Positions 10,538-38,791 of a stretch of DNA of 64,000 nucleotides are shown here, piece by piece. The translations under genes and the position numbers were made by a program. Each line of letters opens with the position of its first letter. Positions within the stretch are counted from its first letter, which is position 1. The DNA is taken from NCBI GenBank assembly GCA_035275065.1, contig DATENM010000150.1, positions 80,620 through 144,619 of the forward strand, in the 5' to 3' direction. The notes under the pieces are model-generated. The model had not been told where the DNA came from. It did not search any database and was given only the letters and a program-made list of their open reading frames with translations. The stretch is from Blastocatellia bacterium (GTDB lineage Bacteria > Acidobacteriota > Blastocatellia > UBA7656).

Positions 10538-11572
10538 TCAGGGCCGCGCCAGCGGGAAGGGAAAGCGGCGGCGCGGGAACGGCAGGGTGGTCTTCTTCTT
10601 CTGCTCCTGCTTCTGGGCCGGTTCGGGCTCAAGCTGCGGCGGCGACGCGAAGCTGATCTCTTCGCGGAAGGTGGCATAGACCGGCTGGCCGTTCAGCAGC
10701 GCCGGCGAAAACTTGTATTGCCGGAAGGCTTGCATGGCGCGGTCATCAATCAACGAGTCAATCGAGCGGATGACTCGCACATTGGTGACCTTGCCTTCGG
10801 GGGTGATGACGCAGGCGAGCAGCACCGAGCCGTGAACCGCTTGCCCGCTCTCGAATTTTGGCGCGACGCGCTCGACCGCCACCGGCGGCGTGAAGCGGTC
10901 GCCCTCTTTCATCTCGACCGGGCGGCCAAATTCATCTACCGGGTGCGACAACTGCTCAGGCCGGTTGCGCAAATTCGTCAGCGGGACGATCTGTGGCGTC
11001 ACCGACACCAGCAGAGCGCGCTCAATGGGTGCGCTCTGCTGCGCGCCACCGGCGCCGATATAATACTTCACGCCGAACATACCCTTGCCGCCGCGCAGCA
11101 GCACCGTCTCGTAGCTGTCTAGCTCGATGTTCTTGACGTCGAGCAATGGGCGGTTGGCGTAGCGCACACGGACGTCGAGCTTCATTGAGCCGCGAATCAC
11201 TTCGCTCGGCGTAATCGTCAGCGTCATGTACTCTGGGCCGAGCAGCACGGCGTCGTTGAAGGTCTCGGCGGTGCGCAGCCCTACGGTGCGCGCGTGGCGC
11301 ACGGCCAGCTCATCGAGCTTGTGCTTGTCCTTGAGGTAGCCCAGTTCTTCGTCGGCGCTCGAATAGCTGCTGTTGAGCCGGGTGATCTCTTCAAGCGCCG
11401 GCGAGCGCTGCGGGTCGTACTGGAAAACCGCGAAGGTTAGATTAACGCCGTACTCGCCGCGCCCAGCAGCGCGGTTGGTTTGATTGCTGGCCGCGCCGCC
11501 CGATTGCGCGAGCGCCGAGGGCGACAGCACGATGATTGCGATGAAGGTGAAAACAAACCTGCGAACATCCAT
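10538..11572 (-). CDS. TonB C-terminal-domain protein (periplasmic)
   Basis: Has a signal peptide. The TonB_C-like segment is VAPKFESGQAVHGSVLLACVITPEGKVTNVRVIRS...AMQAFRQYKFSPALLNGQPV, followed by a Pro/Lys-rich tail. Confidence 0.65.
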   Translation of the reverse strand: MDVRRFVFTFIAIIVLSPSALAQSGGAASNQTNRAAGRGEYGVNLTFAVFQYDPQRSPALEEITRLNSSYSSADEELGYLKDKHKLDELAVRHARTVGLRTAETFNDAVLLGPEYMTLTITPSEVIRGSMKLDVRVRYANRPLLDVKNIELDSYETVLLRGGKGMFGVKYYIGAGGAQQSAPIERALLVSVTPQIVPLTNLRNRPEQLSHPVDEFGRPVEMKEGDRFTPPVAVERVAPKFESGQAVHGSVLLACVITPEGKVTNVRVIRSIDSLIDDRAMQAFRQYKFSPALLNGQPVYATFREEISFASPPQLEPEPAQKQEQKKKTTLPFPRRRFPFPLARP

Positions 11573-11577
11573 AAATT

Positions 11578-12453
11578 CTATTTTACATCTCCGGGTATGA
11601 CTTCTTGCGCGGCGCGCTCGGCCAGCAGCCGGCGATAAGCTTCGCTCTTGCCCAGGCCGCGGGCGCGCGCCACGCGCTTGAGCGCCGCCTTTTGCTCCAA
11701 GCCTTCGTCGCGCATCAGCGCCGCGACTTCTTCGACAATCGAGCCGGCGGCCTCTTGATTGACGGTCGCCGCCGCGCCTTCGATTAGAGGGCCGACGAGC
11801 AGCACGAGTTCGCCGCGCACCTCTCGTGATTGCATCACGTCGATCATTTCATCGAGCGGGCCGCGCAAAAACTCTTCGTGCAGCTTGGTTAGCTCGCGCG
11901 CCACCACACAATGACGATTGCCGAGCACGGCGCGCGCGTCGGCGAGCGTTGCGTTGATGCGGTGCGGCGCTTCGTAAAAAACGAGCGTCGCCTTGATCTC
12001 GGCCAGTGCGGCGAGCCGCGCTCGGCGTGGCGATGATTTGGCTGGGAGAAAGCCTGCGAAGTAAAACTCGTCGGTCTGAAGCCCTGAGGCCGCCAGCGCC
12101 GCAACGAGTGCCGACGCGCCTGGCACTGGCACCACTTGAACGCCGGCGGCGAGAGCTTCTTGCACGATACGGTAGCCGGGGTCTGAAACCAGCGGCGTGC
12201 CGGCGTCGGAAACCAGCGCGATGCGCTGGCCGGCGGCGAGGCGCGCCACCAGCTCGGCGGCGCGCTGACGCTCGTTGTGCTCGTGATAGCTGATGGTGGG
12301 CGTCGCGATCTGAAAATGCGCCAGCAGCTTGCGCGTGTGGCGCGTGTCTTCGCAGGCGATCAGATCGACTTCGCCGAGCAGCCGCAAGGCGCGCAGGGTG
12401 ATGTCTTCGAGATTGCCTATCGGCGTGGCGATGACGTAGAGCGCACCAGACAT
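11578..12453 (-). CDS. rsmI: 16S rRNA (cytidine1402-2'-O)-methyltransferase
   Basis: LYVIATPIGNLEDITLRALRLLGEVDLIACEDTRHTRKLL is the canonical RsmI N-terminus. Length of 291 aa fits. Confidence 0.9.
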   Translation of the reverse strand: MSGALYVIATPIGNLEDITLRALRLLGEVDLIACEDTRHTRKLLAHFQIATPTISYHEHNERQRAAELVARLAAGQRIALVSDAGTPLVSDPGYRIVQEALAAGVQVVPVPGASALVAALAASGLQTDEFYFAGFLPAKSSPRRARLAALAEIKATLVFYEAPHRINATLADARAVLGNRHCVVARELTKLHEEFLRGPLDEMIDVMQSREVRGELVLLVGPLIEGAAATVNQEAAGSIVEEVAALMRDEGLEQKAALKRVARARGLGKSEAYRRLLAERAAQEVIPGDVK

Positions 12454-12547
12454 CAGATGTATTAGGCGGCGCGGCGGCGGCGGCTGTCAACATGCCGCAG
12501 GCAATCGACCAGGGCCTATTCATTCTCGAATAACCATTGGGGATGAA

Positions 12548-12613
12548 CCGCCAAGACGCCAAGACCGCCAAGAAAAGTTCGGCGTTCTCTTGGCGGTCTT
12601 GGCGTCTTGGCGG
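12548..12613. repeat. 26-bp perfect inverted repeat (hairpin) built from tandem octamer-like units
   Basis: The left arm CCGCCAAGACGCCAAGACCGCCAAGA (12548-12573) and right arm TCTTGGCGGTCTTGGCGTCTTGGCGG (12588-12613) are exact reverse complements with a 14-nt loop. It lies in the divergent rsmI/GT intergenic region. Confidence 0.9.
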
Positions 12614-12724
12614 TTTAAGTCCGGAGAATGAATAGACCCTAGGCAAGCGACAACCGATCTAGGCCGCTTGTTAAGCGCTGTGATAGAATGCGCCGCATTG
12701 GCATCAGGGTCATTCTGAATCATC

Positions 12725-14128
12725 ATGGTTGAATCACATTCGAGCGAAAACCTCGCGCAAAGCCGCGAGGCCGTGTCTGCGTCTGCGTCGCGGCAGGCGC
12801 TGGGCTGGAAGCTCGCCCTGTTGTTGCTCATCGCGCTCGGCGTCCGCCTGGCGCTGGTGCCTGTGCGCCTGAATCGCCCCGACCGGCGCGACTATATCGG
12901 CTCGGCGCAAAAGATCGTGCGCTTCGGGCTGCCGAGTTTCTATGATCCCACGGAAGGCGACCGCGCCAACCGCGAAGCTCCTGTCCCTTACCCGCCGATC
13001 CCCGTCTATTTCTACGCCGTCGCCGGCTATGTCTATCAGACCTTCGATCCGGGCTTCGCCGAGATACGCCGATGGCGCGACGTCCCGGTTGACTCGCTCG
13101 CGCTCAACTACCTGATCGAGATTCCGATCTTCGTGTTCGATCTGCTGCTTGCCGCTCTGCTTTTCTGGTTCGTGCGGCGGCGGCACGGCGACCGGCAAGC
13201 CTGGCTGTGCGCCGGGCTGTACGCCTTCAACCCGGCGGTGCTGCTCGATGGGGCGATGTGGGCACAGCCCGACGCCATTCACTGTTTCTTTCTGGCGCTG
13301 GCCGTCGTCTTTCTGCTGGAGCGCCGGCCCGCGCTCTGTCTGCCGGCGCTCGCCCTGACCTTGCTGGCCAAGCCGCAGCCAGCGGTCATCGTGCCGGTGA
13401 TCCTGCTCATCGCCCTGCTAAATGCGACGATGCGACAGCGGCTGCAATCAATGCTTGCGGCAACGGCGGCGACGGTGATCGTGTTGCTGCCCTTTCTGCT
13501 GACGAGCCCTCATGCCATCGTCAGTATGATCCGCATCGCCACTCACGCGCACCCCTTTGTTTCGCTCAACGCGCATAACCTGTGGTGGCTGGTGACGACA
13601 TTGCAAGGGCTGAACCCCAGGTGGCTGTCTGACCACGCGCCGCTCTTTTATGGTCTGAGCTACTTTGCCGCAGGCTTGCTGATCTTCGCCGGCTTCTACG
13701 TGGTGGTTGTCGCGAAAACGCTGCGCACGCCACTCGCGCGATTGACCGCCGAGCCCTTCGCTTACATCGGCCTGATCTTCTTCGTCTTCGCCGTCCGCAT
13801 GCATGAGAATCATCTGGTCCAGGCGCTGCCGCTGCTGCTGCTGACCGGCCTGACGCTGCGCCATCAGAAAGTCGTCTTCGCTCTGTTGACGCTGGCGGTC
13901 TTTGCCAACCTGCTGCTGCACACCCACGAGATCACCGCCGACGCCACTTCGCCGTTGCTGCAATCGTTGCGCATGACGAACGCCGCGCTGCATCTGGCGA
14001 CGCTGGTTTACTGGAGCCGTCACGCGCTCAAAGGGGGAATAACCGAGCTGCGCGGCGCGCTCCACGCCGGCATTTCGCTTTACCGCCGCGAGCGCGGCGA
14101 TCCTTCGCTGTCCAGGCCGTCTGGCTGA
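12725..14128 (+). CDS. polytopic membrane protein, GT-C-type glycosyltransferase-like (PMT_2/DUF2029-like)
   Basis: 467 aa with more than 9 hydrophobic segments and a loop after TM1 containing D/E and PYPP. The overall layout resembles ArnT/PMT-like enzymes. This is a family-level guess only. Confidence 0.5.
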
Positions 14129-14217
14129 GCCGATCCCGGTTTCACCTTGACAACGTCTGGCAAAAGCATAACCTTGCAGATCAGGCGGATCATCTCTCTC
14201 TCATCAGAGCTGCACCG

Positions 14218-16227
14218 ATGGCAACGACGATTTCACACTACCGGCTCGAAGAAGAACTCGGCGCGGGCGGCATGGGCCGAGTGCATAAAGCCTATGACAC
14301 GACGCTCGACCGCACCGTCGTCTTGAAACTGCTGGCCCCCGACCTGATTGCCGAAGACGAATCGCGCCGCCGCTTTCTACGCGAAGCGCGGCTGGCGTCG
14401 GCGCTCGATCACCCGAACATCTGCACGATCTTCGAGATCGCCGAAGTCGATAATCAGTACTTCATCGCCATGCAGTACGTGCAGGGCAAGACGCTCAAGC
14501 GCGTCATCAATGGCCGCCCGCTCAACCTCGACAGTCTCTTCTCAATCGCCCTGCAAGTCGCTGACGCGCTCGCCGCCGCACACGCCAAAGGCATCGTCCA
14601 CCGCGACATCAAATCATCGAACATCATCGTCACGCCGCGCGGCCAGGCCAAGGTACTCGATTTCGGCTTGGCCAAGCTGCTCTCGGACAAAGAGCGCGCC
14701 GCGCAGAGCGAGACGGAAGAGTTGACGCGCGTCGGCTCACCGCTCGGCACGCCGAATTACATGTCGCCGGAACAGGCGCGCGGCGAGCGTGCCGACCACC
14801 GCAGCGACATCTACTCGTTCGGCGTCGTGCTATACGAGATGGCGACCGGTCGCCTGCCGTTCAAGGGACAGACCAATGTTGACCTGATGCACGCGGTGAT
14901 TCATGACCCGTTCAAGCCGGCCAAAGTGGTTAACGATAAGCTGCCGCCTGATCTATCAAGCATCATCGATCTGGCGCTGGCAAAAAAGCCGGGCGAGCGT
15001 TACCAGACCATGCAGCAGATGCTCGAAGACTTGCAGCGGTTGAGCATCGCCGTGCGCCTGGGCGCGTCGAGCGTTCCCGACGGCATCGTCACGCCCTTTG
15101 TGACGCCGAAGAAGCAGGGCGGGCGCGGCTCGATCAGCGCCTTCGTCAATCGCCTGTTCGGACGCAACCTGCCGGTCGACTCGCACCCGAGCCATGTTTC
15201 GCTGCCGTCGCCGCGCGAGGCCGTCAGCCAGGACTTTTCACTGATGAGCGGGCCGCGCCGGCAACTGGCGGTGCTGCCCTTCCGCAATCTGAGCGGTGAT
15301 GCGCAGGCCGATTTCTATGGCATGTCGCTGGCCGACAGCCTGATTACGGAGCTGGCAAAAGTGAAGACGGTCACGGTGATCCCATCGAGCCGTGTGGCCA
15401 AGTATCAGAACACGGCGGTTGACCCGGCGCAGGTGCGCGCCGAGCTGGGCGCCGACGCCGTGCTGATGGGCAACTTTCTGAAAGCCGGCGAGCGGCTGCG
15501 GGTGACGGCGCAACTGGTGGACGCGGCGAACGGCGGCATCCTCTGGAGCGAGAAGATCGATGCGGATTCGACCGACGCGCTGGCGATTCAGGATCGCATC
15601 TCGCACCGCATCATCGCCGGGGTGTCGGGCGGGCAGACGCCGGTTGACCCGACACAGTTGCTGAAGGACGATAACGAAGCCATCCGCGTTGACGCCGTCC
15701 GTACCTTGAAGTTTTCGCATGACCCGCGGGCGCTCGCGGCGCTGATCGAGGCGCTGCGCGACCAGAGCTTGCAGGTGAAAGCCGAAGCCGTGCAGGCGAT
15801 TGTTGCCCTCGGCGAGCAGGCCGCCGGGCCGGTGATCCGCCTGCTCAACGACGCCATTGACGAGAACGATCACCTGACGGCGCGCTTCGCGGCCAAGGTG
15901 CTGGGCCTGATTGGCGACCGCACGATCTCGCCGGTGCTGGTCGCGCTGTTGCACAGCGACGACAAGTTCGTCGCCTGCGAAGCGGCGCTGGCGCTGGGCC
16001 GGTTGGGCGAGACCCGCGCCGTCGGCGACCTGATCCCCTTGCTTGAAGAGACGAATGGCAATGTGCGATTCGCCACCGCCGAAGCGCTCGGGCAGATTTG
16101 CGACGCGGCGGCTTACGATGCCTTGCAGAAGCGCTTGAACGACGAGGACGAAGGGGTGCGCGCCAAAGCCCGCTGGGCCTTGAGCCGCTTGAAAAAGGCC
16201 GGCGCCCACGCGGCAGCCACCACCTGA
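14218..16227 (+). CDS. Ser/Thr protein kinase with C-terminal HEAT (PBS-lyase type) repeats
   Basis: Kinase motifs are [29 protein letters not shown] and SPEQ. The C-terminus repeats ...AV.ALG..G....V..L...L.D. Confidence 0.9.
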
Positions 16228-22293: not shown

Positions 22294-23264
22294 TCAGCTT
22301 GCCAGCCATCGAGCGTAAGCGCGGATGTCAATCATTGGCACCGTGGCGCTGCTCTGGAGACGCGCGATTAATTCTAATAGGAATGCTGTGGCAGGTTTGC
22401 CTCCAACTATGATGGTGTAGCAGTCATTCGCGTCGCAGGTAAATGTGCCATGTGCAGCAACGCAGCCGATGTCAAGGTGGCCCTCTGGCCCACTACTGAG
22501 CGCATCCGTCAGGGGCTTACCCAGAGCAGGGTTCCATTCACTCTCAAAGGTTAGCAGACCTCCGAAGATGTGAGGCAATGGCCTTGCAGGGTACGTGCCG
22601 CCGGCATAGGGGATCGGAAGGCTGGTACGGTGAAGACGACGGACGCTGGCCACCTTTTCCTGGGCATATTCGACATGGCGAGCGTTAATAGATTGCTTGG
22701 CCTCAAACACTGCGTAGACGCTTTCGGAAGGGATGATGAGCTGGCCTTCATAATGAAAGATAAAGGGCGAATACTGTCGATCAAATACCACAACATCGAT
22801 TTGCTGGCTGAAGGCCCCATTGCTGTCCACGACGTGCGCCATTTCAGATTGATAGCGTTCGGGCAAATAGGTTTGGAGTAACTCGAGCCAGACATGCTCG
22901 GTAGCGTTACCCTTAGTGCCCCTCTGTGCAAAGCGGGTTCTGCATTCGAATGCTGCTGGGAGAGATTAGTCTCTACATCCGCCCATTTACTCGTAGCTAT
23001 TTCATGGGCCAGCTTCAAGAGCCTCTCAGCTGCTGAAGAGGGGTGATTTAAATTCAATACCAGTGCTCGCAAGTCGTCCTTGATCGCCGTCCAATGTCCA
23101 GGAAGGTCATCAATCACCAGGGCACTGAATGCCTCAAATCCCTGGTGGCTTTCCGAGTTCCCCTTGTCAGCATTGACGGATAGCGGTCGGCCAGTGCGCT
23201 CCCGAAAGCGGCCAATGTCGTACAGAAGCGCGGCTAAAATGATCGTCCGGTCATACTCTGACAT
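22294..23264 (-). pseudogene. DUF6602-like PD-(D/E)xK nuclease gene split by a 1-nt frameshift at a G4/C4 run (N-part carries a degenerate HD-like AALLYDIGRF motif)
   Basis: The downstream frame stays open upstream of the track's TTG start and reads ...RGTKGNATEHVWLELLQTYLPERYQ...QIDVVVFD...VFEAKQS (DUF6602 signature plus D..ExK). The upstream frame (ATG at 23264) reads sensibly up to ...EPALHRG and then turns to Ser-rich nonsense. The two frames meet at CCCC 22919-22922. Confidence 0.5.
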
Positions 23265-23336: not shown

Positions 23337-23771
23337 TCAGGCCACAAGTTTGTATCTGCCTAACCCAAAGCTTGTGCCAGTTCCGATGTGTAATATCTCG
23401 CCAGCGATAATGAGCGGGATAAACTCCTGGATTTCTTCGCCAGCGTATTCGATGGTGCCAACAAAGCCACCCATGTTCATCTTGACCTTTTGTCGGCTCG
23501 AATATCTTTCCCAATCTCGCCAGTGTAGACCCGACGCGCTTGTCCGAACGTTCGATGCTTGTTCAATCAAGGCTCGATAATTCACGTCCAGCCGCCCACT
23601 TCCATGGACCGCTGCTAATAAGGAAATCCTTCGCAACAGGTTGCGAACCAACAGTTCAAAAGTCAGCGCCTGCTGCAAATCACCGTCTACACGGATTCGA
23701 GCCGGCGTCTGGAAATTTAATCGGATTTCATTCAGGTATAGTGACCCCGCCGGGCAGAAAATTTCATGGAG
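23337..23771 (-). pseudogene. Cas6-family RAMP endoribonuclease, C-terminal fragment (5'-truncated)
   Basis: The frame is open from the stop at 23772-23774 and reads LHEIFCPAGSLYLNEIRLNFQTPARIRVDGDLQQALTFELLVRNLLRRISLL...GEILHIGTGTSFGLGRYKL. The last part is the glycine-rich Cas6 C-terminal loop motif. There is no ATG, and about half the usual length is missing. Confidence 0.55.
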
Positions 23772-24129
23772 CTAAAGAAAACCTCTTGAAATGAGATGGG
23801 TCTAAAAAACCATGACCTGTAGTCGATATACATATTGCTTTTATTGTTCGCCGAGATTAAAGTGGGAACACTTCGAAAGGCAAAGTGACAATATTTGCTT
23901 TGCCGGACCACAAAATAAGACGCACCTCTTAGCGGATTGAAGTCGATACAGGGTCCAAGGCCCTGTGAATAATCAGCCGCGTTTGGCGATGACCACCGTC
24001 TATGCGAAAACGCTTCCCGAACGTTGATCGGGAGACTGCGCCGCCGGTCAGATTCGGGGCGTCTTCAGCCAGCGCAAGGTCTGTTATCCAGAAAGCCAAT
24101 CGCGATAGGGCCATCTGGGAGATCACAGG

Positions 24130-25545
24130 ATGAGCAAGAAAATTAAAATCCTCTTTCTCGCCGCCGAACCGACCGATCTGTTTCGCCTGCAACTGGGAAA
24201 GGAATGCGAGCGGATCAAGCGCGAAATCGAGCTGGAAGTAAACCGCGACCGCTTCGAGGTCGTCGAACACTGGGCGGTCACAACAAGCGAGTTGATCAGG
24301 GCGCTGCGCAAACACCAGCCAGACATCGTTCACTTCAGCGGTCATGGCGGCAAGAGTGGGATCATCCTTGAAGATGGTTCTGGCGATAGCCATTCGGTTC
24401 CCAAAGAAGGACTGGCGGAACTGTTCGAGATGTTCAGAAATAATGTCCGCCTGGTTTTTCTAAATGCCTGCTACAGCGAAGCCCAGGTGCAGGCTTTTAC
24501 GCAGACCATTGATTTCACGATTGGTATGCGAAAGCCTGTGGGAGATTCCGCAGCCATCAGCTTTGCGGCGGCTTTCTATGGAGGATTAAGTTTCGGCTAC
24601 TCAGTAGAACAGGCGTATAGAATGGCCAATATCTTGCTTAAGCTCGACCGGTTGCCGGACCAGAACAATCCAAGACTATTCACCCGCAGAGGCGTTGATG
24701 GCTCAAGGTCGTTTCTCGATCATATACCTGTTCCGCAATTGACTAAAAAATGGCGCGGGGCCAAAGGACTCCGCAGTAGTAAGGGGAAGAGAACGGACGA
24801 GCCACAGGTAGGTTTATGGATTCATGGATGGGTTAAACGACTGTATGATTGCCTTCCCACAGTCGAGCTTGACTGGACGGAATACTTCCGTCGCGATACC
24901 AGGAAAGTTCCGAGCCAGCAAGCCTGGAACCTTTCTTTATTTAAAGATCTTCAAAAAGCCAAGAAAGAGCTTGATAAGCATAGTCAGGGAGCCTTTATAG
25001 ATTTTCGGGGCAAGTTACCGCTAACGGCGCTGCTCGCAGTTGGGGCTACGTTTCCTGAGGTCGGAGGCTACAGCCTTCGCGCCGAACAGCCCACCCGTGG
25101 TAAGACGGTTCTGTGGAGGTCCGATGCTGGTTCATCGAAGCGCGGGTTTAAAATCTTAGTGGCCAAACAGAGAAAAGGCAGCCGCAAGCAGGATATTCTC
25201 ATCGCTTTATCAATTACCGGCAGCGCTAGAGATGAAGTTGTTGCACTCTATAATCAGTATCCTGAAACTTTCTCGACATTGATTTACGCTGAACCGAATG
25301 ATGGGACGGGGGATGGGAGCTTGCGCTCGGATAAGGATGCTATGGCTTTAGCCATCCATGCCAAGGAACTGATCCGAGAGTGCAAGCGCGATTACCAGGC
25401 CTCGCAAGTGCACCTGGTAGTCCATGGCCCGGGTGCGTACTGTCTGTTTCTTGGTCAGCGGCTCAATGCCTTAGGGACCCTAATCACGTATGAGAGGGCG
25501 CTGAACGGAAGCTACAGGCGATCAGTTACTCTGCATACGGGGTAG
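24130..25545 (+). CDS. CHAT (caspase-like) protease domain fused to a C-terminal SAVED/CARF-like sensor domain
   Basis: N-terminus: ILFLAAEP...DIVHFSGHG...VRLVFLNACYS gives a His/Cys dyad in the short CHAT layout. C-terminal ~270 aa: DILIALSITGSA...VHLVVHGPGAYCLFLGQRLNALGTLITYE follows the SAVED-type terminal pattern. No signal peptide. Confidence 0.65.
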   Translation: MSKKIKILFLAAEPTDLFRLQLGKECERIKREIELEVNRDRFEVVEHWAVTTSELIRALRKHQPDIVHFSGHGGKSGIILEDGSGDSHSVPKEGLAELFEMFRNNVRLVFLNACYSEAQVQAFTQTIDFTIGMRKPVGDSAAISFAAAFYGGLSFGYSVEQAYRMANILLKLDRLPDQNNPRLFTRRGVDGSRSFLDHIPVPQLTKKWRGAKGLRSSKGKRTDEPQVGLWIHGWVKRLYDCLPTVELDWTEYFRRDTRKVPSQQAWNLSLFKDLQKAKKELDKHSQGAFIDFRGKLPLTALLAVGATFPEVGGYSLRAEQPTRGKTVLWRSDAGSSKRGFKILVAKQRKGSRKQDILIALSITGSARDEVVALYNQYPETFSTLIYAEPNDGTGDGSLRSDKDAMALAIHAKELIRECKRDYQASQVHLVVHGPGAYCLFLGQRLNALGTLITYERALNGSYRRSVTLHTG

Positions 25546-25814
25546 GGACCAGTCCCAATCGAATGGCGTTGTAATTCTCTCATAAAGCGCATAGGCACTT
25601 TCCTGCTATCTAATCCCATATACTGAAAACTCACTCGACGTATGAAATTATTTCTTCCGAATCGTCACTTATATGTTGTGTGTAGCTTCGCGCGAGGCGC
25701 TCTAGATTAGTCTAATGAGTCACCGCTCGTCTGCCCGCTCTCGGCGTGAGCTGTTGCGAGTTAAAGAGTCAGACTGGGTAGCGGATGACGTAACGAATGA
25801 GAGGAGCGAAACAA

Positions 25815-26012
25815 ATGGCAGAACGCAAGACGACAAAAGAATCGACAAGAGATGGCACGCTTCAATCTTTGAGGACCGCCAAGGCCGGCAGCAAGAAGAA
25901 GCCCGCCAAAGACCTTGAAAGGAGTGGTTCTCTTCAATCATTGAGGGGGGCGTCTTCCAAGAAGGGAACAGGCACATCAAAAAAAGCTGTCCGCAGTAGT
26001 AGGACTCGCTGA
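25815..26012 (+). CDS. small (65 aa) Lys/Ser-rich basic protein with internal G(T/S)LQSLR repeat
   Basis: A GAGGAG RBS sits 8 nt upstream of the ATG at 25815. The sequence is MAERKTTKESTRDGTLQSLRTAKAGSKKKPAKDLERSGSLQSLRGASSKKGTGTSKKAVRSSRTR. I recognise no homology. Confidence 0.4.
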   Translation: MAERKTTKESTRDGTLQSLRTAKAGSKKKPAKDLERSGSLQSLRGASSKKGTGTSKKAVRSSRTR

Positions 26013-26148
26013 AGCGTCCGGGCTCGTGGTTGGAGTATCGACCAGCAATCTGTCTCCCTTTGCGCATCTCGGCTTAGATATGTCTGGGGCTGGCTCTAAG
26101 GGGCGATTGATTGATGCGCTAGTCGTGTCTCTGGCCTACCTTACGAAA

Positions 26149-26253
26149 CAAGCAATCCTCTCTGGCAGGGGTAGCGACTACGCGTCGTTAATCCCCGCCT
26201 GGGAGATAGGTTCGACGCGGCCCACGGGCTCCCCTGTCAGAGAGGATTGCTTG
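26149..26253 (+). other. 105-nt nested hairpin (candidate structured RNA or palindromic element)
   Basis: The outer 23-bp stem pairs 26149-26171 with 26231-26253, with a single G-T (G.U) pair. Inside is a 7-bp stem CGCGTCG/CGACGCG (26181-26187 / 26213-26219), and inside that TCCC/GGGA (26092-style apex at 26192-26204). It lies in a ~560-nt ORF-poor gap. Confidence 0.45.
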
Positions 26254-26575
26254 CACAATCACTCGCCCTTCAGGTTGCATTCACACCTGACGATCAATGC
26301 CAGGACCAGACTGGCGGGTACACCCTTCACCCCGGGTTTACCATCGAAAGTAAAATCTCATCATTAGAAACAGGTATCTGTAATATCCACCCCGCCAATC
26401 AGGTTGAACTGTCTGAAGTTTTCGTGGTAAATAACACCCGCACCGTCAGGTTGTCAGAGAACTTAGGGCAGTGGATGTTCCTGTATTGATTGTTTGTTCG
26501 ACGTACCGCTAAGTATTGACACTGTATCCTCTTGTTAGCTGACGATGAATAAAAGACTGACATAAGGCGATACCA

Positions 26576-29500
26576 ATGTTCCAACCAGGGAATTGTCGAT
26601 TCTCGTTGACCAACTTTCCCCGGCATACCGTATACAGGTTGATCTTGCTGATAGTTCTGCTAGCAAACGTGTGCCCCCGCTCGTTTGCGCATCGCTACAA
26701 CCGGGAAGCGGGAACGAGCCTTGGGACGGCGCTTAAGCCCGTAACCACTAATCAAGAGCCCATTCACTTATTGCCAGGAAAAACGATTAGGCAGGAGGTC
26801 GGCGCAGGTAAACGCACATCTTTCCAGATCATACTCTCTGCTGCCCAATTTGTGCGTGTGATCTTTGAAGGGGAGTGGGCTGTCTTCTCGGTGAGCCTGT
26901 CGGCTCCATCACATCACAGGATCTATGAGTTCAATACTCGCCGATTCAGACCGACTCCCCTTACATTCATTACAGACTTCTCAGGCACATATACCCTAGA
27001 CATTGAATCACGCGAAGAAGAAGGAGAAGCGGCACATTGTCAACTGACGATTGAGTCGGTGCGAAGGCCGGCCGCGGGGGATGGTTATCTGATCGCCGCT
27101 GAGCGAGCAACCGCAGAGGCTGAAAGGCTGCGGGAAGAATGGCAACTTAAATCGCTGACGCAGTGCATCGCGAAGTATAAGCAGGCACAGACTTACTGGC
27201 GCCGGCTCGATAATCGAGCCGAGGAAGCCAGTGCGCTCAAAAGCATCGGCGATGTCTACGCGACACTCGGCCAAAATCCGGCTGCCCTGACCTCCTTTAA
27301 TCTGGCACTTCCATTGAGTAAGGTCGCCGGTGATCGGCAGCTGGAGATTGATATTCTCAATGCATTGTCGGAAGTCCAGGCTGATCTAGGAAACTGGCAA
27401 GCCGCACTGGATAACGCTAGACAGGCACTCACCCTCAGCAACGAAGTCGGCTTCATTCGGGGGAAAGCCCGAGCCTTAAATGCTATTGGCCTGGTCTATC
27501 ACCTGTTGAGCGATTTTCAGCAGGCGCTCAACACTTTCGATCAGGCCATGAACCTCTGGCGAATATCCCAAGACCGCCGCGGTCAAGCGCAAACGCTAAC
27601 GAACATCGCCTATTCATATGGTGATCCCGGCGACCTGCAAAAATCCCTCTCATTGTTCAATGAGGCATTGCTCCTTTGGCGCAAATCAAAAGACCTGCGG
27701 GGGGAAGCTCAGACGCTGACGACAATTGCTTTGCTAAATAGCTCGCTTGGTGAAATGCAGAAGGCATTTGATACCCATACGCAGGCGATTCGTCTCTTCC
27801 GAATGATGGGGGATCTCGCGGGCGAGGCCGTTACCCTCAATGGGATGGCATATATTTATGAAACCCTGGGAGATCGCCAGAGGGCAGTAGAGCTTTTCGG
27901 CAGGGCCTTGAAACTCTTTCAAGTGGCTGGCAGGCGCTCTAGCGAAGCGATTACCTTAGGCTTGATTGGTGAAGTCTATTATTCACTCGGAGATAATCAA
28001 AAGGCCCTTGAGTATCACACGAAGAAGCTCAATGCAACTCGCTCTCTCGGTGATCAGAGAGCAGAGGCTTACACACTGAGAGACATGGGGATTGTCTTTG
28101 ACTCGCTCGGGAACAAAGACAAGGCGCTCGATTACTTGAGCCGTGCGCTCTCACTGAGCAAGGCGGTTTCTGACCTGCGTGCACAAGCCTCAACGCTTAA
28201 TGGTCTCGGATCCATTAGTGAGAGGTCTGGACAAAGGGAGAAGGCGCTCGTGTTTTATCAGCAAGCCCTCCACCTCAGCCGGGCCTCAGAAGATCGCGCA
28301 CAAGAGGCACAAACACTTCACAACATCGCTCGGGCTTACCGCGATCTTGGCAACCTTGCAGAGGCATATGAGCAGGCCAAGGCCCTGTTAGATATAGTTG
28401 AAACGCAACGCGTCAAAGTCGCCAGCCGGGAACTACAGGCATCCTACTTTGCCTCCGCGCATCAGCACTACGAGCTATATATCGGAATCTTAATGCGTAT
28501 GCACCGGCAGAATCCTGGCTCAGGCTATGACACTGTAGCCTTCGGAGCGAGTGAAAGGTCTCGCGGGCGAGTCTTGCTTGATCTATTGAACGAGGCCCAG
28601 GCAGACATTCGACAGGGTGTCGATCCGGTGCTGTTGCTGCACGAGCGCGAGCTCCAACAATTGCTCAATACCAAAGCAGAGCGACAGATGCGCCTGCTCA
28701 GTCGCTCGCATACAGAGGAGGAGGCAACAGCAATTAAAAAAGAGCTTGTAGACATTACAAGTCGGTATGAAGATGTACTAGCTCAGATCAGGGCGACCAG
28801 TCCGAAATATGCCAATCTAACGCAACCCCATACGATGACCCTTTCCGAGATCCAACAAATACTAGATGCAGATACCATGGTTCTGGAATATTCGCTCGGG
28901 GAAGAACAGAGCTACCTTTGGGCTGTGACATCGAAATGGGCTAAGGTGTTTGAGCTGCCCCCTCGTAAGAAAATAGAGGCCGCAGCAATTCGACTGTACA
29001 GATCCTTAACCGGAGACGCCCAAAGCCAAAGTAGCAAGTTTCCACAGCAACGAAGTAGGGCCTTAGAAAACGAAGCTTCTCAATACGGTGAGGCGGCAAC
29101 GGACCTCACAAGCATGTTACTCGATCCTGTCGCGCCTTACCTTGCAGCCAAGCGATTAGTTATCGTAGCGGATGGGGCACTACAATACGTGCCCTTTGCT
29201 GCGCTTTGCGATCCTAACAACCCCAAAGAAACCAGGCAAGAACAGCCTCTTGTGGTGAATCACGAAATCGTCAACCTGCCATCAGTCTCAATACTTTCAG
29301 CTCTGAGGTCAGAGACCAATGGACGCAGCCCTGCGCCGAAAGCGCTTGCAGTCTTCGCAGACCCGATATTTGAGCGTAACGACCCACGGGTCATAATGAA
29401 CGAAGGCCGTCGAAGGAATAATGTTAATAACAAGCCTGGCCACATTGAAGTGAGCCGAGGCCAGTACCAACCGAGGTCTGATGAACTACTAGATGAGGCT

Positions 29501-30097
29501 AAAGAAAGACTGCGGTTTGAGCGATTACCTTTTGCGGCAAGTGAAGCAATGACCATTGCCAGTCTTATACCTGAGCAACAGCGTAAGCTAGCTCTCGGTT
29601 TTGATGCAACCCTCTTTGCAGCAAAGAGCCCGGACCTACAGCAATATCGTATATTGCATTTTGCGACTCATGGACTGATCTATGGAGAGCACCCGCACCT
29701 GTATGGCGTCGTGCTCTCTCTGGTGGATAAGCAGGGAAATCCACAGGATGGGTTTCTTCGGCTTAACGAGATTTACAATCTAAAGCTCACCGCCGACTTA
29801 GTTGTCTTAAGCGCGTGCCAGACTGCCTTGGGAAAGGACATTCAAGGAGAGGGGATCGTGGGGCTGGCGCGCGGGTTTATGTATGCCGGGGTTGCGCGCG
29901 TAGTCGCCAGCTTGTGGAAGGTAGACGACAGAGCCTCGGCGGAGTTAATGAAGTATTTTTATGAAGAGCTGTTTGGTCGGAACCAATTACGCCCCGTCGC
30001 GGCTTTGCGAGCCGCCCAGGTGCGGATGTTGCAGCAACCGCGCTGGAAGTCTCCTTACTACTGGGCTGCCTTCATACTCCAAGGTGAATGGAAGTAG
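26576..30097 (+). CDS. secreted/membrane-anchored TPR-repeat protein with C-terminal CHAT protease domain
   Basis: N-terminal hydrophobic segment YRLILLIVLLANV. More than 12 TPR-like 40-aa repeats (A..L..IG.VY..LG....AL..F..AL.L). The C-terminal CHAT domain has ILHFATHG and LVVLSACQT (His/Cys dyad). Confidence 0.9.
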   Translation: MFQPGNCRFSLTNFPRHTVYRLILLIVLLANVCPRSFAHRYNREAGTSLGTALKPVTTNQEPIHLLPGKTIRQEVGAGKRTSFQIILSAAQFVRVIFEGEWAVFSVSLSAPSHHRIYEFNTRRFRPTPLTFITDFSGTYTLDIESREEEGEAAHCQLTIESVRRPAAGDGYLIAAERATAEAERLREEWQLKSLTQCIAKYKQAQTYWRRLDNRAEEASALKSIGDVYATLGQNPAALTSFNLALPLSKVAGDRQLEIDILNALSEVQADLGNWQAALDNARQALTLSNEVGFIRGKARALNAIGLVYHLLSDFQQALNTFDQAMNLWRISQDRRGQAQTLTNIAYSYGDPGDLQKSLSLFNEALLLWRKSKDLRGEAQTLTTIALLNSSLGEMQKAFDTHTQAIRLFRMMGDLAGEAVTLNGMAYIYETLGDRQRAVELFGRALKLFQVAGRRSSEAITLGLIGEVYYSLGDNQKALEYHTKKLNATRSLGDQRAEAYTLRDMGIVFDSLGNKDKALDYLSRALSLSKAVSDLRAQASTLNGLGSISERSGQREKALVFYQQALHLSRASEDRAQEAQTLHNIARAYRDLGNLAEAYEQAKALLDIVETQRVKVASRELQASYFASAHQHYELYIGILMRMHRQNPGSGYDTVAFGASERSRGRVLLDLLNEAQADIRQGVDPVLLLHERELQQLLNTKAERQMRLLSRSHTEEEATAIKKELVDITSRYEDVLAQIRATSPKYANLTQPHTMTLSEIQQILDADTMVLEYSLGEEQSYLWAVTSKWAKVFELPPRKKIEAAAIRLYRSLTGDAQSQSSKFPQQRSRALENEASQYGEAATDLTSMLLDPVAPYLAAKRLVIVADGALQYVPFAALCDPNNPKETRQEQPLVVNHEIVNLPSVSILSALRSETNGRSPAPKALAVFADPIFERNDPRVIMNEGRRRNNVNNKPGHIEVSRGQYQPRSDELLDEAKERLRFERLPFAASEAMTIASLIPEQQRKLALGFDATLFAAKSPDLQQYRILHFATHGLIYGEHPHLYGVVLSLVDKQGNPQDGFLRLNEIYNLKLTADLVVLSACQTALGKDIQGEGIVGLARGFMYAGVARVVASLWKVDDRASAELMKYFYEELFGRNQLRPVAALRAAQVRMLQQPRWKSPYYWAAFILQGEWK

Positions 30098-30130
30098 TAG
30101 GCTGAATCATCCGAAAGATGACCTCTAGAG

Positions 30131-30673
30131 ATGATCGATAAGAACTCTCAAGCCTTTGAAGCCTTACTGCTCCGTCTCGAGCCAAGCCTTCCTGACCCAG
30201 AAAAGAGGTATAAACAGTTGCGCTCAAAAATGGTAAAGTTCTTCGGGTGGAAACGTTGTGAGGAACCGGAGTCCCTTGCTGACGAAACCATCGGAAGGAC
30301 GGCCAGGAATCTTGGTGCGGGAGAAGCGATTCACGCGGATAATCCTTACTCCTACATCTATGCGATTGCCAGGAATGTATTCAGGGAATATCTTCGAGAT
30401 AAGAAGAAGCGAGAGATGATTAGCAATAATTTACCTGATCACACTCAAACATATTGTGAGGATTCGCAAGATTGTAGGAAGGAATGTTTGCACGGGTTGT
30501 CCCGGGATAAACGCAGTTTACTTCAGCATTATTATGCAGGCGAAGAAACCAGAGATAGATTAGCTCAGTCCCTAAACATGAGTCTCAATGCCCTGAGATT
30601 ACAAATACATCGGCTCAAACAGGAATTAAGGGCATGTGAGGAGCAATGTCTTCAGAATTACAAAAGGAGGTAG
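30131..30673 (+). CDS. ECF-like sigma-70 family RNA polymerase sigma factor
   Basis: 180 aa with a region-2-like segment (ESLADETIGRTARNL...YIYAIARNVFREYLR) and a region-4 HTH-like segment (LSRDKRSLLQHYYAGE..RDRLAQSLNMSLNALRLQIHRLKQEL). It starts 33 nt after the TPR-CHAT stop. Confidence 0.7.
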   Translation: MIDKNSQAFEALLLRLEPSLPDPEKRYKQLRSKMVKFFGWKRCEEPESLADETIGRTARNLGAGEAIHADNPYSYIYAIARNVFREYLRDKKKREMISNNLPDHTQTYCEDSQDCRKECLHGLSRDKRSLLQHYYAGEETRDRLAQSLNMSLNALRLQIHRLKQELRACEEQCLQNYKRR

Positions 30674-30816
30674 AAATTTATCCTTCTATTTTTTCACTTA
30701 TATGTAAAGGGCAAGATGGTGAGCGATCAGACTACCCTGGCCTGGGGTCGTAATCTGTTCCTGCTGCATTCGGAAGGGTTGTTGGCGATTTTAATACTGT
30801 ATTAAGGGTTACTACC

Positions 30817-31800
30817 GTGAAGCAGAAGACGCTGCAAGAAGACTTGATGATCCGCTATCTGCTGGGGGATTTGACGGAAGAGGAGCAAGCCCAAATTGAG
30901 GGGCGGTTCCTGGCTGATAATCAGTATTTTGAACAACTGTGCTCGGTTGAAGATGCTTTGATTGATGAGTATGCACAAGGCACCCTGGCCGAACATGAGC
31001 GTGAAAAGATCGAAAGTCTATTATTATCCTCTAAGCGCCAAGCTCACGAGATTGAATTTGTCCGCGACATGATCAAGTTCGTTTCCGAGCATCCTATTGA
31101 CGAGCCAGGCAAGCAAGGTTCGGCCCATTTCAAGCCTGCCAGTAAAGTGCGCTCTTTGATGACCTTTCTGCACCTGAGAAGTAGGCGTCTCTCTTTCGCC
31201 GGAATGATATTCTTGATTGGAATAGTTGTATCTTTAGTCTTATGGAATTTTTCACTTCAAAAGAGAATCAGACACATGGGCTCTCTGCAAGCGGTGCTAG
31301 AACAAAACCAAGAGGAATTACGGCAGCAAGTTATTGTAGAAAAAGACAGCCGTGAGGCAATGATTAAAGAGTTGGAAAGCGAACGCCGTGAGCGAGAGCA
31401 ACTTAAAGAAAAAGTCATCACCTTGCAGGAATCTGGACCATTGATCTCAAGGAATAATACTACCATTCTTGATGTCCAAGCTGCCGCCTTCACCAGAGGT
31501 CAAGGGCAGTTGAGGGTGGTACATATCAACCCGAACGTTTCTCGATTCCAAATCAGAATACATACGGATAAACCGGGCGGTTACCAGACCTACACCGCAT
31601 TGATCAAAACATTTGAAGGGACCCAAGTCTGGAGTAAGGATCAAATCAGACCGAATCAAATAAATTCAAGGACATTGGTTCTAACCCTCCCAGCCGCAAT
31701 TCTAAACAACGACGATTACATACTTACACTGGAAGGAAGAACTGAAGCTGGTACAACAGTAGGAATTGGAGATTATCCTTTCCGAGTCAAGAGATGGTAA
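30817..31800 (+). CDS. single-pass membrane protein, anti-sigma-factor-like
   Basis: The N-terminus MIRYLLGDLTEEEQAQIEGRFLADNQYFEQL resembles cytoplasmic anti-sigma domains. One TM segment (LSFAGMIFLIGIVVSLVLWNF), a coiled coil, and a ~130-aa external domain follow. The start is either GTG at 30817 or ATG at 30847. Confidence 0.6.
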   Translation: MKQKTLQEDLMIRYLLGDLTEEEQAQIEGRFLADNQYFEQLCSVEDALIDEYAQGTLAEHEREKIESLLLSSKRQAHEIEFVRDMIKFVSEHPIDEPGKQGSAHFKPASKVRSLMTFLHLRSRRLSFAGMIFLIGIVVSLVLWNFSLQKRIRHMGSLQAVLEQNQEELRQQVIVEKDSREAMIKELESERREREQLKEKVITLQESGPLISRNNTTILDVQAAAFTRGQGQLRVVHINPNVSRFQIRIHTDKPGGYQTYTALIKTFEGTQVWSKDQIRPNQINSRTLVLTLPAAILNNDDYILTLEGRTEAGTTVGIGDYPFRVKRW

Positions 31801-35358: not shown

Positions 35359-35628
35359 ATGCCAGAACTGAGCCGTTTCTATGGAATAATCATTCGCATG
35401 TACTGGGAAGCTAAGGCGCCGCATCACCGTTCCCATTTTCACGCTTACTACCAAGATGAGGTCGCGGTTTTCAGCATTGATCCAGTCGAATTAATGGCTG
35501 GTTCACTACCGAGGCGACAACAGCGGCTCGTTTAGGCTTGGGCTGAACTACACCAACAAGAGTTATTAAACGACTGGGAGCTGTTGCAAACTGGACAAAC
35601 GCCACAGCCGATAGACCCGTTGAGCTAA
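35359..35628 (+). pseudogene. DUF4160 family gene interrupted by an in-frame TAG (35533-35535)
   Basis: My translation is MPELSRFYGIIIRMYWEAKAPHHRSHFHAYYQDEVAVFSIDPVELMAGSLPRRQQRLV*AWAELHQQELLNDWELLQTGQTPQPIDPLS. The family signature continues straight through the stop. A GGAG RBS and the DUF2442 gene follow. Confidence 0.7.
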
Positions 35629-35637
35629 GGAGCGACC

Positions 35638-35934
35638 ATGAATCATCCAATCTATCGCGTCGAGTCATTTGAGGTGGTCGGGGCTTATACCCTAAAAGTA
35701 AGATTCGATGACAACACGGAACAAACTATAGACTTTCAGCCGGTGCTGGCGGGTCAGTTATATGGACCATTGCAGGAACTTACTCTGTTCACTCAGGTTA
35801 AGCTCGATCCCGAAGTGAAGACGCTGGTATGGCCGAATGGGGCAGACTTTGATCCCGCAACATTGCATGATTGGCCTGAGCAAATCGAAGCCCTGAAAGA
35901 ATCCGCTCAACATTGGGAATTAACCGGTGCATAA
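35638..35934 (+). CDS. DUF2442 domain-containing protein
   Basis: 98 aa reading VESFEVVGAYTLKVRFDDNTEQTIDF...LVWPNGADFDPATLH. This is the usual partner of DUF4160. Confidence 0.85.
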   Translation: MNHPIYRVESFEVVGAYTLKVRFDDNTEQTIDFQPVLAGQLYGPLQELTLFTQVKLDPEVKTLVWPNGADFDPATLHDWPEQIEALKESAQHWELTGA

Positions 35935-38226: not shown

Positions 38227-38603
38227 ACTTTGATCCTCCTCGAAGGGCAGGGAAGCGGAATTGGATGAATCGGGCGTACAACCGGACCCACTTGATGGCC
38301 GCCATCCTAATCAACAAAGCGCGCGTAGTCAACCTCACATAAATTTGTTTCTCTTAATCATCAGGCCCTGAGAGCGCCAGCTTCAGAAGTCAAGGTAAGG
38401 AGAAGCGCAGTGGCAGACGAGTCCGTGACGGCGGTGAGCGCAAGCGACCGCCCTGCCGGCGGTGATCTGCGGGGTGATCGGCCCGGCGCGCCTCCTACTC
38501 GCGATCCGCTGGGTTCTCGATGGGTTCTCCGCCTCGCACGTCATGCCTGAACGGAGGTCCCGCAGGGGGCCTGGAAGACCTGTTCGCCGCAGACTGTGGC
38601 CGC

Positions 38604-38631
38604 TTGAAATGGTTTTCGCAACTGTGATAAT
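38604..38631 (+). promoter_or_regulatory. candidate sigma-70-type promoter for the 38.8-54.7 kb operon
   Basis: TTGAAA (38604-38609), a 16-nt spacer, then GATAAT (38626-38631), about 160 nt upstream of the ATG at 38792. Pattern match only. Confidence 0.3.
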
Positions 38632-38791
38632 TTTCTCAGCGCCTGGTAGCTCACGTCGCTTACATATCCTTATTCATATACGATTTGCGGTTAGGGGTTG
38701 ATTCAGTCGGAATACGCGCTCTGGTAAATCGTTCGTAAGCTCATGGGCGGAAAAGGAGACCCATCGTCGGTCAGAAACAGCGAGCTCCTCT

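Follow-up and report, generated by a model that had tools for sequence, protein, structure and literature searches.

The window analysed here is a stretch of 64,000 nucleotides on contig DATENM010000150.1 of a Blastocatellia bacterium (assembly GCA_035275065.1), and its subject is a block of protease and sigma factor genes in an AT-richer island at 22–32 kb, where the GC content is 0.46–0.53 compared with ~0.62 in the flanking DNA. On the plus strand, all co-directional, lie a gene for a CHAT-SAVED protease, a small open reading frame (ORF) of 65 amino acids (aa), a structured element of ~105 nt, a gene for a TPR-CHAT protease, a gene for an extracytoplasmic function (ECF)-like sigma factor, and a gene for a one-pass anti-sigma-like membrane protein. 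We refer to the last three genes as the triad. The original prediction, made from the letters of the window, had placed these features and the island where we found them, and had read them as a possible defence relay from protease to transcription that lacks its signal generator. Across the 64-kb window, neither a Cas effector nor a CRISPR array, a tRNA or an Rfam family was found. Our own reading, to which we give somewhat better than even chances, is that what survives in the block is the accessory half of a type III CRISPR-Cas cassette, conserved and acidobacterial (Blastocatellia-like), from which the effector genes have been deleted. Directly observed are the gene content and synteny, the deletion scars, the recurrence of motifs, the covariation of the RNA and the similarities of fold described below.

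The first gene (24130–25545) encodes a soluble protein of 471 aa, in which an N-terminal CHAT protease (residues 1–200) is fused to a C-terminal SAVED sensor (residues 220–471). The SAVED assignment made from the sequence holds (Pfam SAVED 1e-26, NCBIfam SAVED 1.2e-31), the CHAT half is recognised by Pfam at 3.6e-10, and the His72/Cys114 dyad is invariant in 23 homologues. An AlphaFold 2 (AF2) model of the protein (pLDDT 82.8) was matched by Foldseek to the Cap4 cyclic-trinucleotide receptors (6e-14), to TIR-SAVED bound to cyclic triadenylate (cA3; 7e-12), and to the CHAT half of SAVED-CHAT 8tl0 (28% identity, root-mean-square deviation (rmsd) 2.7 Å). These three ranked ahead of the cGAMP-type Cap5 and the cA4-type CalpL. 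Type III loci usually use a single cyclic oligoadenylate (cOA) species, and the cA3-activated nuclease NucC co-occurs with CHAT-SAVED both in the related locus L169 and, as a relic, in the window. Judging from the nearest SAVED structures, the co-occurrence with NucC and the tendency towards one cOA per locus, the likely ligand of CHAT-SAVED is cA3.

The TPR-CHAT protein (26576–30097, plus strand; CHAT 5.8e-74) has 1173 aa and a conserved His1032/Cys1081 dyad. A hydrophobic, signal-like N-terminal segment is present in all eight orthologues, of which seven reach the threshold and one (L168) was read by eye, and from this hydrophobicity the protein is predicted to be exported. An AF2 model of its CHAT domain (pLDDT 80) gave Foldseek matches to Csx29 (1.8e-13, TMq 0.57), separase (~2e-11) and DdvA (2.5e-9) at 12–15% identity; the protein is of the separase/craspase fold class and an orthologue of none of the three. 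Sequence-level PDB searches with the CHAT domain and with the anti-sigma-like protein returned nothing relevant, and no PDB sequence relative of the latter was found; the fold search was needed instead. Another promoter-like motif, P2 (GTTGAA-N15/16-TGRTAAAT), lies at 26403–26432 on the plus strand, 145 nt upstream of the TPR-CHAT gene. It occurs once per locus and always upstream of TPR-CHAT (~95–145 nt), in nine loci including L140, L170, L171 and L173. P2 was considered as a marker of a wider regulon and rejected, since it occurs only at this position.

The sigma factor gene (30131–30673, plus strand; 180 aa) starts 33 nt after TPR-CHAT, as originally noted. Single models score it weakly (Sigma70_r2/r4_2 ~5e-3; TIGR02989 3.4e-11 and TIGR02937 1.6e-8, neither of which passes its cut-off). 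When 12 orthologues are combined into a profile, this matches the ECF sigma factors SigW, SigL and SigE over the sigma2–sigma4 region (positions 46–173) at ~1e-4, which places the protein as a divergent sigma factor of the ECF type. Cysteines C43, C115, C119 and C169 are invariant among the 12 orthologues and C173 is nearly so, which is unusual for an ECF sigma factor; this pattern of residues suggests a metal or redox site. The last gene (30817–31800, plus strand) encodes a 327-aa anti-sigma-like protein with, as predicted, a single transmembrane helix (residues 125–143). Eight orthologues share its layout of a conserved cytoplasmic N-domain, the membrane helix, a coiled coil and a conserved periplasmic C-domain. 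The zf-HC2 match is weak (E 0.017), the NCBIfam anti-sigma match is 2.5e-4, and the N-domain contains one Cys; it looks like a non-zinc anti-sigma domain with putative sigma binding. The spacer between the sigma and anti-sigma genes (30674–30816) has a near-constant length of 143–164 nt in L003, L164, L166, L167, L169, L170 and L172, and is conserved at the nucleotide level beyond the motif described below, including a recurrent hairpin-like segment with TTCGGC. Gene callers placed a 29-aa mini-ORF here; we rejected it, because stop codons occur in all frames, and regard the spacer as a conserved nucleotide element.

Between the two proteases lie the small ORF and the structured RNA. The small gene, originally described as encoding a 65-aa basic protein, is real and occupies 25815–26012 on the plus strand, the conserved reading frame (MAERK...). 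An alternative ORF at 25715–25918 was rejected, as its frame is not conserved. Basicity is not a trait of the family, since the net charge flips between orthologues. What is shared is low-complexity repetition: in the window the motifs RDGTLQSLR and RSGSLQSLR stand 24 residues apart, and orthologues with one to four RDGTxxxxR repeats at a spacing of ~24 residues occur in L003, L164–L170, L172 and L038. Most orthologues have two to four copies, and L168 has one clear copy; those in the cassette loci are 54–112 aa long. This co-transcribed small protein is the leading candidate for the substrate of CHAT-SAVED.

The ~105-nt hairpin of the original prediction proved to be part of a conserved three-way-junction RNA at 26147–26255 (plus strand), including an inverted repeat with 23-nt arms (26149–26171 and 26231–26253). 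The RNA is detectable by nucleotide similarity in all loci, and a covariance model scores 65–110 bits on the plus strand in all cassette loci as well as in L170, L171, L172 and L038. Covariation was seen in 16 of 30 pairs with eight sequences. In an enlarged alignment, which was fitted to the model and in which two rows are reverse-strand matches, 95.4% of cells are paired compared with 37–50% in slid controls; double changes occur in 23 of 30 pairs, a level reached by none of 500 shuffles. Against Rfam, the RNA gave nothing at gathering thresholds, and at E ≤ 10 the sole match in the region was a chance snoRNA. The RNA precedes every member of the TPR-CHAT clade of the window, including those of L170 and L172, which lack CHAT-SAVED, and the solitary TPR-CHAT of L171.

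Co-localisation of CHAT-SAVED with the triad in other genomes had been set in advance as the test of the original prediction, and it was seen in eight of the nine close relatives sampled (49–67% identity). CHAT-SAVED and the triad belong to one conserved, CRISPR-linked unit. Downstream of CHAT-SAVED, the cassette loci carry the small ORF, a TPR-CHAT of 1052–1179 aa, a sigma factor of ~180 aa and an anti-sigma protein of ~328 aa. All nine relatives examined in full have an intact type III system with Cas10 adjoining: it is III-D-like in L003, L164, L165, L166 and L168, III-B in L167, and III-A with NucC in L169, and each of these seven has the cassette downstream of CHAT-SAVED. It should be noted that the L165 contig ends right after TPR-CHAT, so that the sigma and anti-sigma genes are beyond its reach. 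Five further co-localisations were inferred from matches of CHAT-SAVED and TPR-CHAT on contigs of identical size. In L003, from a long-read metagenome-assembled genome (MAG), TPR-CHAT is split into ORFs of 979 and 182 aa (12486–16021), by either a frameshift that makes it a pseudogene or a sequencing indel. The closest relative with full context, L163 (67% identity), has an intact III-B system and the same AMP-binding left flank as the window. It lacks the cassette: at 11521–15437 the motif of the small ORF is kept after CHAT-SAVED, but an integrase follows where the small ORF, RNA and triad would be expected, and a mobile element may thus have disrupted the cassette.

Remnants of such a type III system stand beside the block in the window. 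The Cas6 relic of the original prediction was recognised by PADLOC at 1.2e-44; it lies at 23340–23747 on the minus strand and keeps the C-terminal part (residues ~234–369), the N-terminus and the cas6 promoter having been deleted. It is 71–79% identical to the Cas6 proteins of L163, L164 and L169, which belong to III-B, III-D and III-A loci; cas6 therefore travels with the cassette across subtypes. An N-terminal, HD-region relic of Cas10/Csm1 follows at 22860–23264 (minus strand). Residues 5–138 of the 849-aa Csm1 of L169 align to it at 23258–22860 with 39% identity (tblastn, E 4e-20), and PADLOC matches to Cas10 are weak. This relic is fused by a deletion to a truncated NucC relic at 22294–22920 (minus strand), detected with PADLOC (NucC 9e-85, profile positions 51–241 of 244), Pfam (DUF6602 2.8e-20) and tblastn (residues 61–267 of L169 NucC at 22920–22315), from which ~60 N-terminal residues are gone. 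A chimeric ORF of 237 aa (22551–23264, minus strand) starts in the Cas10 HD region (AALLYDIGRF), continues out of frame through the NucC relic and marks the deletion junction. No Cas10 was found in the window beyond this N-terminal relic, and the signal generator is absent, as originally stated.

The intact layout is seen in L169 (CHAT-SAVED 56% identical), where Cas6, Csm1 (849 aa), Csm2, Csm3, Csm4, Csm5 and NucC are divergent from the cassette, and the scars of the window map onto an ancestor of this type. Two deletions from it explain the window: they removed the 5' part of cas6 with its promoter, most of cas10, csm2–5 and the start of nucC. Identical copies of the locus come from two independent samples (L001, ENA; L002, Logan), which shows that its decay is real and no product of assembly. 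In the window copy, none of the five ORFs of the cassette is truncated, and the catalytic residues are intact. The original prediction had suggested a free-standing or trans-activated variant; it is not a free-standing one, since Cas10 adjoins CHAT-SAVED in every relative and the window carries deletion scars. The CHAT-SAVED of the window is an orphan, unless cA3 reaches it from a source in trans.

The small ORF, RNA and triad are also found without SAVED or cas genes, as look-ups from close TPR-CHAT relatives revealed, and genome and metagenome scans seeded with CHAT-SAVED, which mostly gave CHAT-only relatives, helped to find the SAVED-less triads. The partner is a CHAT-pentapeptide protein in L170, and a CHAT-only protein followed by proteins of ~890 aa and 720–750 aa in L172 and L173; distant triads pair with CHAT-only or CHAT-NB-ARC proteins. 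The short cytoplasmic CHAT is the constant partner of the triad and the sensor domain is the variable part, and a core with changing CHAT partners fits a regulator-plus-cargo design. L170 (ENA ERZ27257050) comes from the same sample as L001 and carries a second small ORF, RNA and triad, with a TPR-CHAT 66% identical to that of the window, paired with a secreted 720-aa hydrolase-like protein as well as with the CHAT-pentapeptide protein; this could be a paralogous copy of the module, in that genome or a related one. Short-CHAT genes stand in tandem directly upstream of the triad in L004 (10001–12493, an Acidobacteriota MAG), and one of them carries a fused NB-ARC/STAND NTPase (1.6e-19), which makes the locus a SAVED-less, STAND-sensor version of the arrangement. 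In L030 (6499–9863), and in synteny in L150, a short CHAT and the triad are immediately preceded by an M48 metallopeptidase (572 aa) and a C14 caspase (549 aa, 5.7e-19), so that four proteases follow one another.

The CHAT-SAVED genes of more distant relatives (35–40% identity; L083, L084) stand directly behind cmr genes of a type III system with Cas10, without a triad. Together with L163, which has none either, these loci would fit a simple juxtaposition by chance, in which one island happens to hold an accessory protease of type III and, unconnected with it, an envelope-stress triad. TPR-CHAT paralogues are indeed very abundant in Acidobacteria and Cyanobacteria (hundreds at 40–45% identity), and triads exist without cas genes. 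However, the same order, spacings, RNA and motifs recur in eight loci that span three type III subtypes at 50–65% protein identity, and five of eight acidobacterial loci chosen solely by a short CHAT domain have an adjacent triad. The cas6 promoter region and the anti-sigma gene, furthermore, have a bipartite motif in common. We consider chance juxtaposition very improbable. In L084, a 212-aa PADLOC candidate, PDC-S17 (3.6e-73), directly follows CHAT-SAVED (11527–12165); it may be a partner or substrate of CHAT-SAVED in these distant type III-B loci, which are probably cyanobacterial.

Upstream of CHAT-SAVED, an alignment of eight cas6/CHAT-SAVED intergenic regions contains a conserved block, P1 (23834–23862, plus strand), which from its sequence may function as a sigma-70-like promoter facing CHAT-SAVED. 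Its consensus is TTGACT-N17-TAAATT, and the window has TTGCTT-N17-TAAAGT, with two departures. The CHAT-SAVED leader (23917–23967, plus strand) contains a solo CRISPR-repeat-like element, PsiR, at 23917–23943, which ends in ATTGAAGT, followed by a hairpin at 23947–23967 (−16.6 kcal/mol). PsiR is single in the window, with 0 expected by chance, and is present in eight of nine cassette loci, usually with a hairpin behind it. In L167, the one locus in which it was compared with the cognate array, PsiR is identical to the true CRISPR repeat at 27 of 37 positions, and the PsiR of the window at 23 of 37; its 3' end carries the same ATTGAA[AG]C handle as the array repeat. Two candidates were rejected here: a complementary target for the spacer-like sequence after PsiR, as no consistent match of at least 10 nt was found within the loci, and a minus-strand ORF at 23929–24393, taken to be an artefact on the strand opposite the conserved leader and CHAT N-terminus.

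The bipartite motif GAAATT-N15-TCACTTAT occurs 36 times, compared with 1.9 in shuffles. We take its form to resemble that of sigmaE-type ECF promoters, and from its sequence and positions we infer an ECF-type promoter read by the sigma factor of the cassette. In the window it lies upstream of the small ORF at 25644–25672 (plus strand, 0 mismatches), a site also occupied in L169, L165, L167, L003, L172 and L163 (the window and six others). A second site, GAAATT-N14-TTCACTTAT at 30673–30701 (plus strand), precedes the anti-sigma gene and overlaps the sigma stop codon; it recurs in L003, L164, L166, L167, L169, L170, L172, L173 and L038 (10 loci with the window). Both sites are perfect matches in the window copy. 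The motif is also found upstream of cas6, in cas6 orientation, in seven loci, and upstream of the CHAT-only genes of the SAVED-less relatives L038, L172 and L173.

The closest functional precedent is the DdvA/DdvS island of Myxococcus xanthus, which contains a CBASS (cyclic oligonucleotide-based antiphage signalling system) effector whose CHAT domain is N-terminal and whose SAVED domain is C-terminal, an ECF sigma factor, an anti-sigma factor that carries a TPR-CHAT in the periplasm, and a type III-B system (PMC11506125, PMC6061681). DdvS-dependent promoters drive CRISPR and CBASS genes, and cells become resistant to phage when DdvA is lost or DdvS is expressed (PMC11506125, PMC6061681). The parts list is the same as in the cassette, including a TPR-CHAT of the separase/craspase type that has a His-Cys dyad, the single-pass anti-sigma protein and the type III system, and the domain order of the window CHAT-SAVED is that of the M. 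xanthus effector. However, TPR-CHAT forms the C-terminus of the anti-sigma factor in DdvA and is a separate gene product with its own signal-like N-terminus in the window; the CHCC zinc ligands of DdvA are lacking from the N-domain of the window anti-sigma protein; and CHAT-SAVED is coupled to type III Cas10 in the cassette and to a CD-NTase in M. xanthus. The cassette has, in addition, the small repeat protein, the structured RNA and the solo repeat. Similarity of DdvA or DdvS to the window proteins is undetectable by HMMER, and the match is one of fold only (E 2.5e-9).

The bipartite motif that cas6 shares with the small ORF, the anti-sigma gene and the CHAT-only genes, together with the DdvA/DdvS precedent, leads us to favour, by a modest lean, the view that the sigma module is an upstream, envelope-sensing regulator of CRISPR/CHAT defence genes rather than the output of CHAT-SAVED. 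The original prediction had the signal run from protease to sigma factor; we found no evidence for that direction, and the shared motif and the DdvS regulon point from the sigma factor to the defence genes. In the intact layout, cas6 and the type III effector operon (sometimes with NucC) would be read one way and the accessory cassette divergently. An envelope or periplasmic cue would act via the exported TPR-CHAT, upon which the anti-sigma protein would be proteolysed and the sigma factor released, as in a split DdvA/DdvS-like sensor. The released sigma factor would then fire the promoters with the bipartite motif, namely those of the cas operon, of the small ORF with the RNA, and of the anti-sigma gene (negative feedback), and in SAVED-less relatives also that of the cytoplasmic CHAT gene. 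When the type III complex meets a target RNA, Cas10 would make a cyclic trinucleotide, probably cA3, that would activate CHAT-SAVED, and NucC where present, as effectors. That the two proteases are predicted to lie in different compartments had been raised as a caveat; since the triad looks like a split DdvA, this problem disappears. Likewise, a role as a cytoplasmic target in the manner of Csx29 or PCaspase is not supported for TPR-CHAT, given its conserved signal-like N-terminus and its nearest functional precedent, the periplasmic TPR-CHAT of DdvA.

Several observations weigh against this upstream role of the sigma module. The motif differs from the DdvS consensus GTAA-N16-CGT, which was tried for the cassette promoters and does not fit the conserved blocks, and it could be the site of some other regulator. 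CHAT-SAVED itself is preceded by the sigma-70-like P1 and not by the bipartite motif, and with two departures from the P1 consensus in the window the locus may be decaying. The export of TPR-CHAT is a prediction from hydrophobicity, and the fold of its CHAT domain is slightly nearer to the cytoplasmic Csx29 and separase than to DdvA. Finally, every triad has a short cytoplasmic CHAT at its side, irrespective of the sensor domain that this CHAT carries, as a relay from protease to sigma factor would also predict.

In such a relay, cA3-activated CHAT-SAVED would cleave the cytoplasmic linker of the anti-sigma protein, a small-protein inhibitor or the TPR-CHAT before its export, and thereby free the sigma factor for a transcriptional response. 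A coupling of protease and sigma factor is known from three characterised CRISPR systems (CalpL/CalpT/CalpS; Craspase–Csx30–RpoE; SAVED-CHAT/PCaspase/PCc-sigma). A juxtamembrane RSGKLQSL in the anti-sigma proteins of L164 and L166 resembles the small-protein repeat RSGTLQSI (0–24 of 1000 shuffles reach the score). However, the five remaining loci in the test, the window among them, lack this resemblance, and the repeat as a mimic of the anti-sigma juxtamembrane region was rejected because it is significant only in the closely related L164 and L166. A match of the repeat to the sigma factor in the window was rejected as well, being weak (51 of 1000 shuffles) and not general. Moreover, a membrane-anchored anti-sigma protein with a conserved periplasmic domain and a signal-like TPR-CHAT N-terminus are hallmarks of extracytoplasmic sensing, the bipartite motif gives cas6 a control element in common with the anti-sigma gene, and the one TPR-CHAT/anti-sigma/sigma system studied by experiment has its sigma factor acting upstream of CRISPR and CBASS. 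We therefore consider the relay rather unlikely.

Both directions may also be combined, in a feed-forward loop or AND gate: envelope sensing would free some of the sigma factor, this would induce the type III system and the small protein, and cA3-activated CHAT-SAVED would then cleave the small protein or the anti-sigma protein, amplifying or terminating the response. The small ORF and the RNA carry the sigma-type motif and sit between the two proteases. Separase- or metacaspase-like cleavage occurs after Arg, and the repeats of the small protein end in an invariant Arg that is compatible with it. The DdvA authors themselves propose a two-pronged inactivation. However, this combined scheme is purely inferential, offers no robust substrate prediction and needs more assumptions than either simpler model, and we hold it to be improbable.

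The cassette was compared with the three CRISPR-linked systems named in the original prediction. In the type III-B system of Haliangium ochraceum, SAVED-CHAT is activated by cA3 and has its partner PCaspase as a specific substrate (bioRxiv 10.1101/2023.06.23.546230; PDB 8tl0). A type III CHAT protease fused to SAVED and, in the same locus, a second caspase-like protease and a sigma factor are shared with the cassette, and the CHAT halves match at the sequence level (phmmer 3e-14). However, the domain order is reversed, SAVED-CHAT in Haliangium and CHAT-SAVED in the window, and for the window SAVED domain Cap4 is a closer match than the SAVED of 8tl0. The second protease of the window is an exported (by prediction) TPR-CHAT of 1173 aa, compared with the cytoplasmic C14 PCaspase of Haliangium; no Peptidase_C14 gene was found within the cassette, either in the window or in the cassette loci. 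The window cassette has a membrane anti-sigma protein and no PCi or PCk. Type III-E Craspase also has a sigma factor in its locus, and its Csx29 is the best fold match of the window TPR-CHAT domain. The window and the related loci are, in contrast, without gRAMP/Cas7-11, Csx30 and Csx31; identity to Csx29 is 13–15%; TPR-CHAT has a signal-like N-terminus; and the sigma factor scores 19.5 bits on the NCBIfam type III-E sigma model, the cut-off of which is 100. With CalpL/CalpT/CalpS the cassette has a concept in common, that of a SAVED-fused protease in a type III locus with a sigma/anti-sigma pair. CalpL is, however, a cA4-sensing protease of the Lon kind, and the anti-sigma factor CalpT is soluble, whereas the cassette has a CHAT protease, a SAVED domain of the trinucleotide type and a membrane anti-sigma protein.

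The leader of CHAT-SAVED has a counterpart of another kind. Solitary repeat units, or crlRNA, regulate defence genes, and the described cases are of type I-C and act on promoter DNA (bioRxiv 10.1101/2024.12.27.630466). A solo repeat-like sequence and hairpin beside a defence gene embedded in a cas locus are found in the cassette too. However, its PsiR stands in a type III context and in the sense leader of the effector mRNA, and no complementary target was found for it within the loci.

With these elements in place, the cassette may be a self-contained, two-signal defence module that moves among III-A, III-B and III-D loci with its own cas6. The sigma unit would license CRISPR transcription, the cA3-gated protease would cut the repeat peptide, and the three-way-junction RNA and the solo repeat would participate, the latter by control of the effector mRNA through Cas6 or the CRISPR ribonucleoprotein (crRNP). 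We put this forward tentatively, as an idea that falls short of probable. If it is true, the CHAT-only, CHAT-NB-ARC and CHAT-pentapeptide versions would be CRISPR-independent members of the same protease-signalling family.

Literature searches returned DdvA/DdvS, SAVED-CHAT/PCaspase, CalpL and Craspase, and in them the acidobacterial split cassette, its RNA and its motif were not described. A survey of type III effectors had recorded SAVED-CHAT in only three loci. The cassette touches two open questions, namely how type III CRISPR and CBASS effectors are switched at the level of transcription and what the targets of caspase-like CHAT effectors are. Through it, type III systems of a second phylum are linked with an ECF sigma factor, a membrane anti-sigma protein and a putatively exported TPR-CHAT, which extends the single Myxococcus precedent, and the small repeat protein comes forward as a candidate for a dedicated protease substrate. 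The candidate promoter motif makes the regulon of the cassette testable, and an uncatalogued structured RNA and a solo repeat in a type III context are added. The window itself shows how the module decays, the effector complex being lost first while the accessory genes stay intact. That it is a decayed example, and that the mechanism is one we infer, tempers its importance.

Two other features of the window lie outside the block. Just past the island, in a local low-GC patch (0.51), is a pair of small genes at 35359–35934 with DUF4160 (58 aa, annotated in L002) and DUF2442 (98 aa, 2.5e-10), which may be a toxin-antitoxin-like pair. Further downstream, at 38792–59374 on the plus strand, six large co-directional genes (1311, 1112, 642, 1469, 644 and 1464 aa) have a GC content of 0.48–0.59, and their sole recognisable domains are Laminin_G_3, DUF6603 (1e-147) and FG-GAP/PPC. 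An AAC-repeat tract lies inside this run at 46761–46858, and a weak P2-like site stands at 38603–38632, ~160 nt upstream of its first gene.

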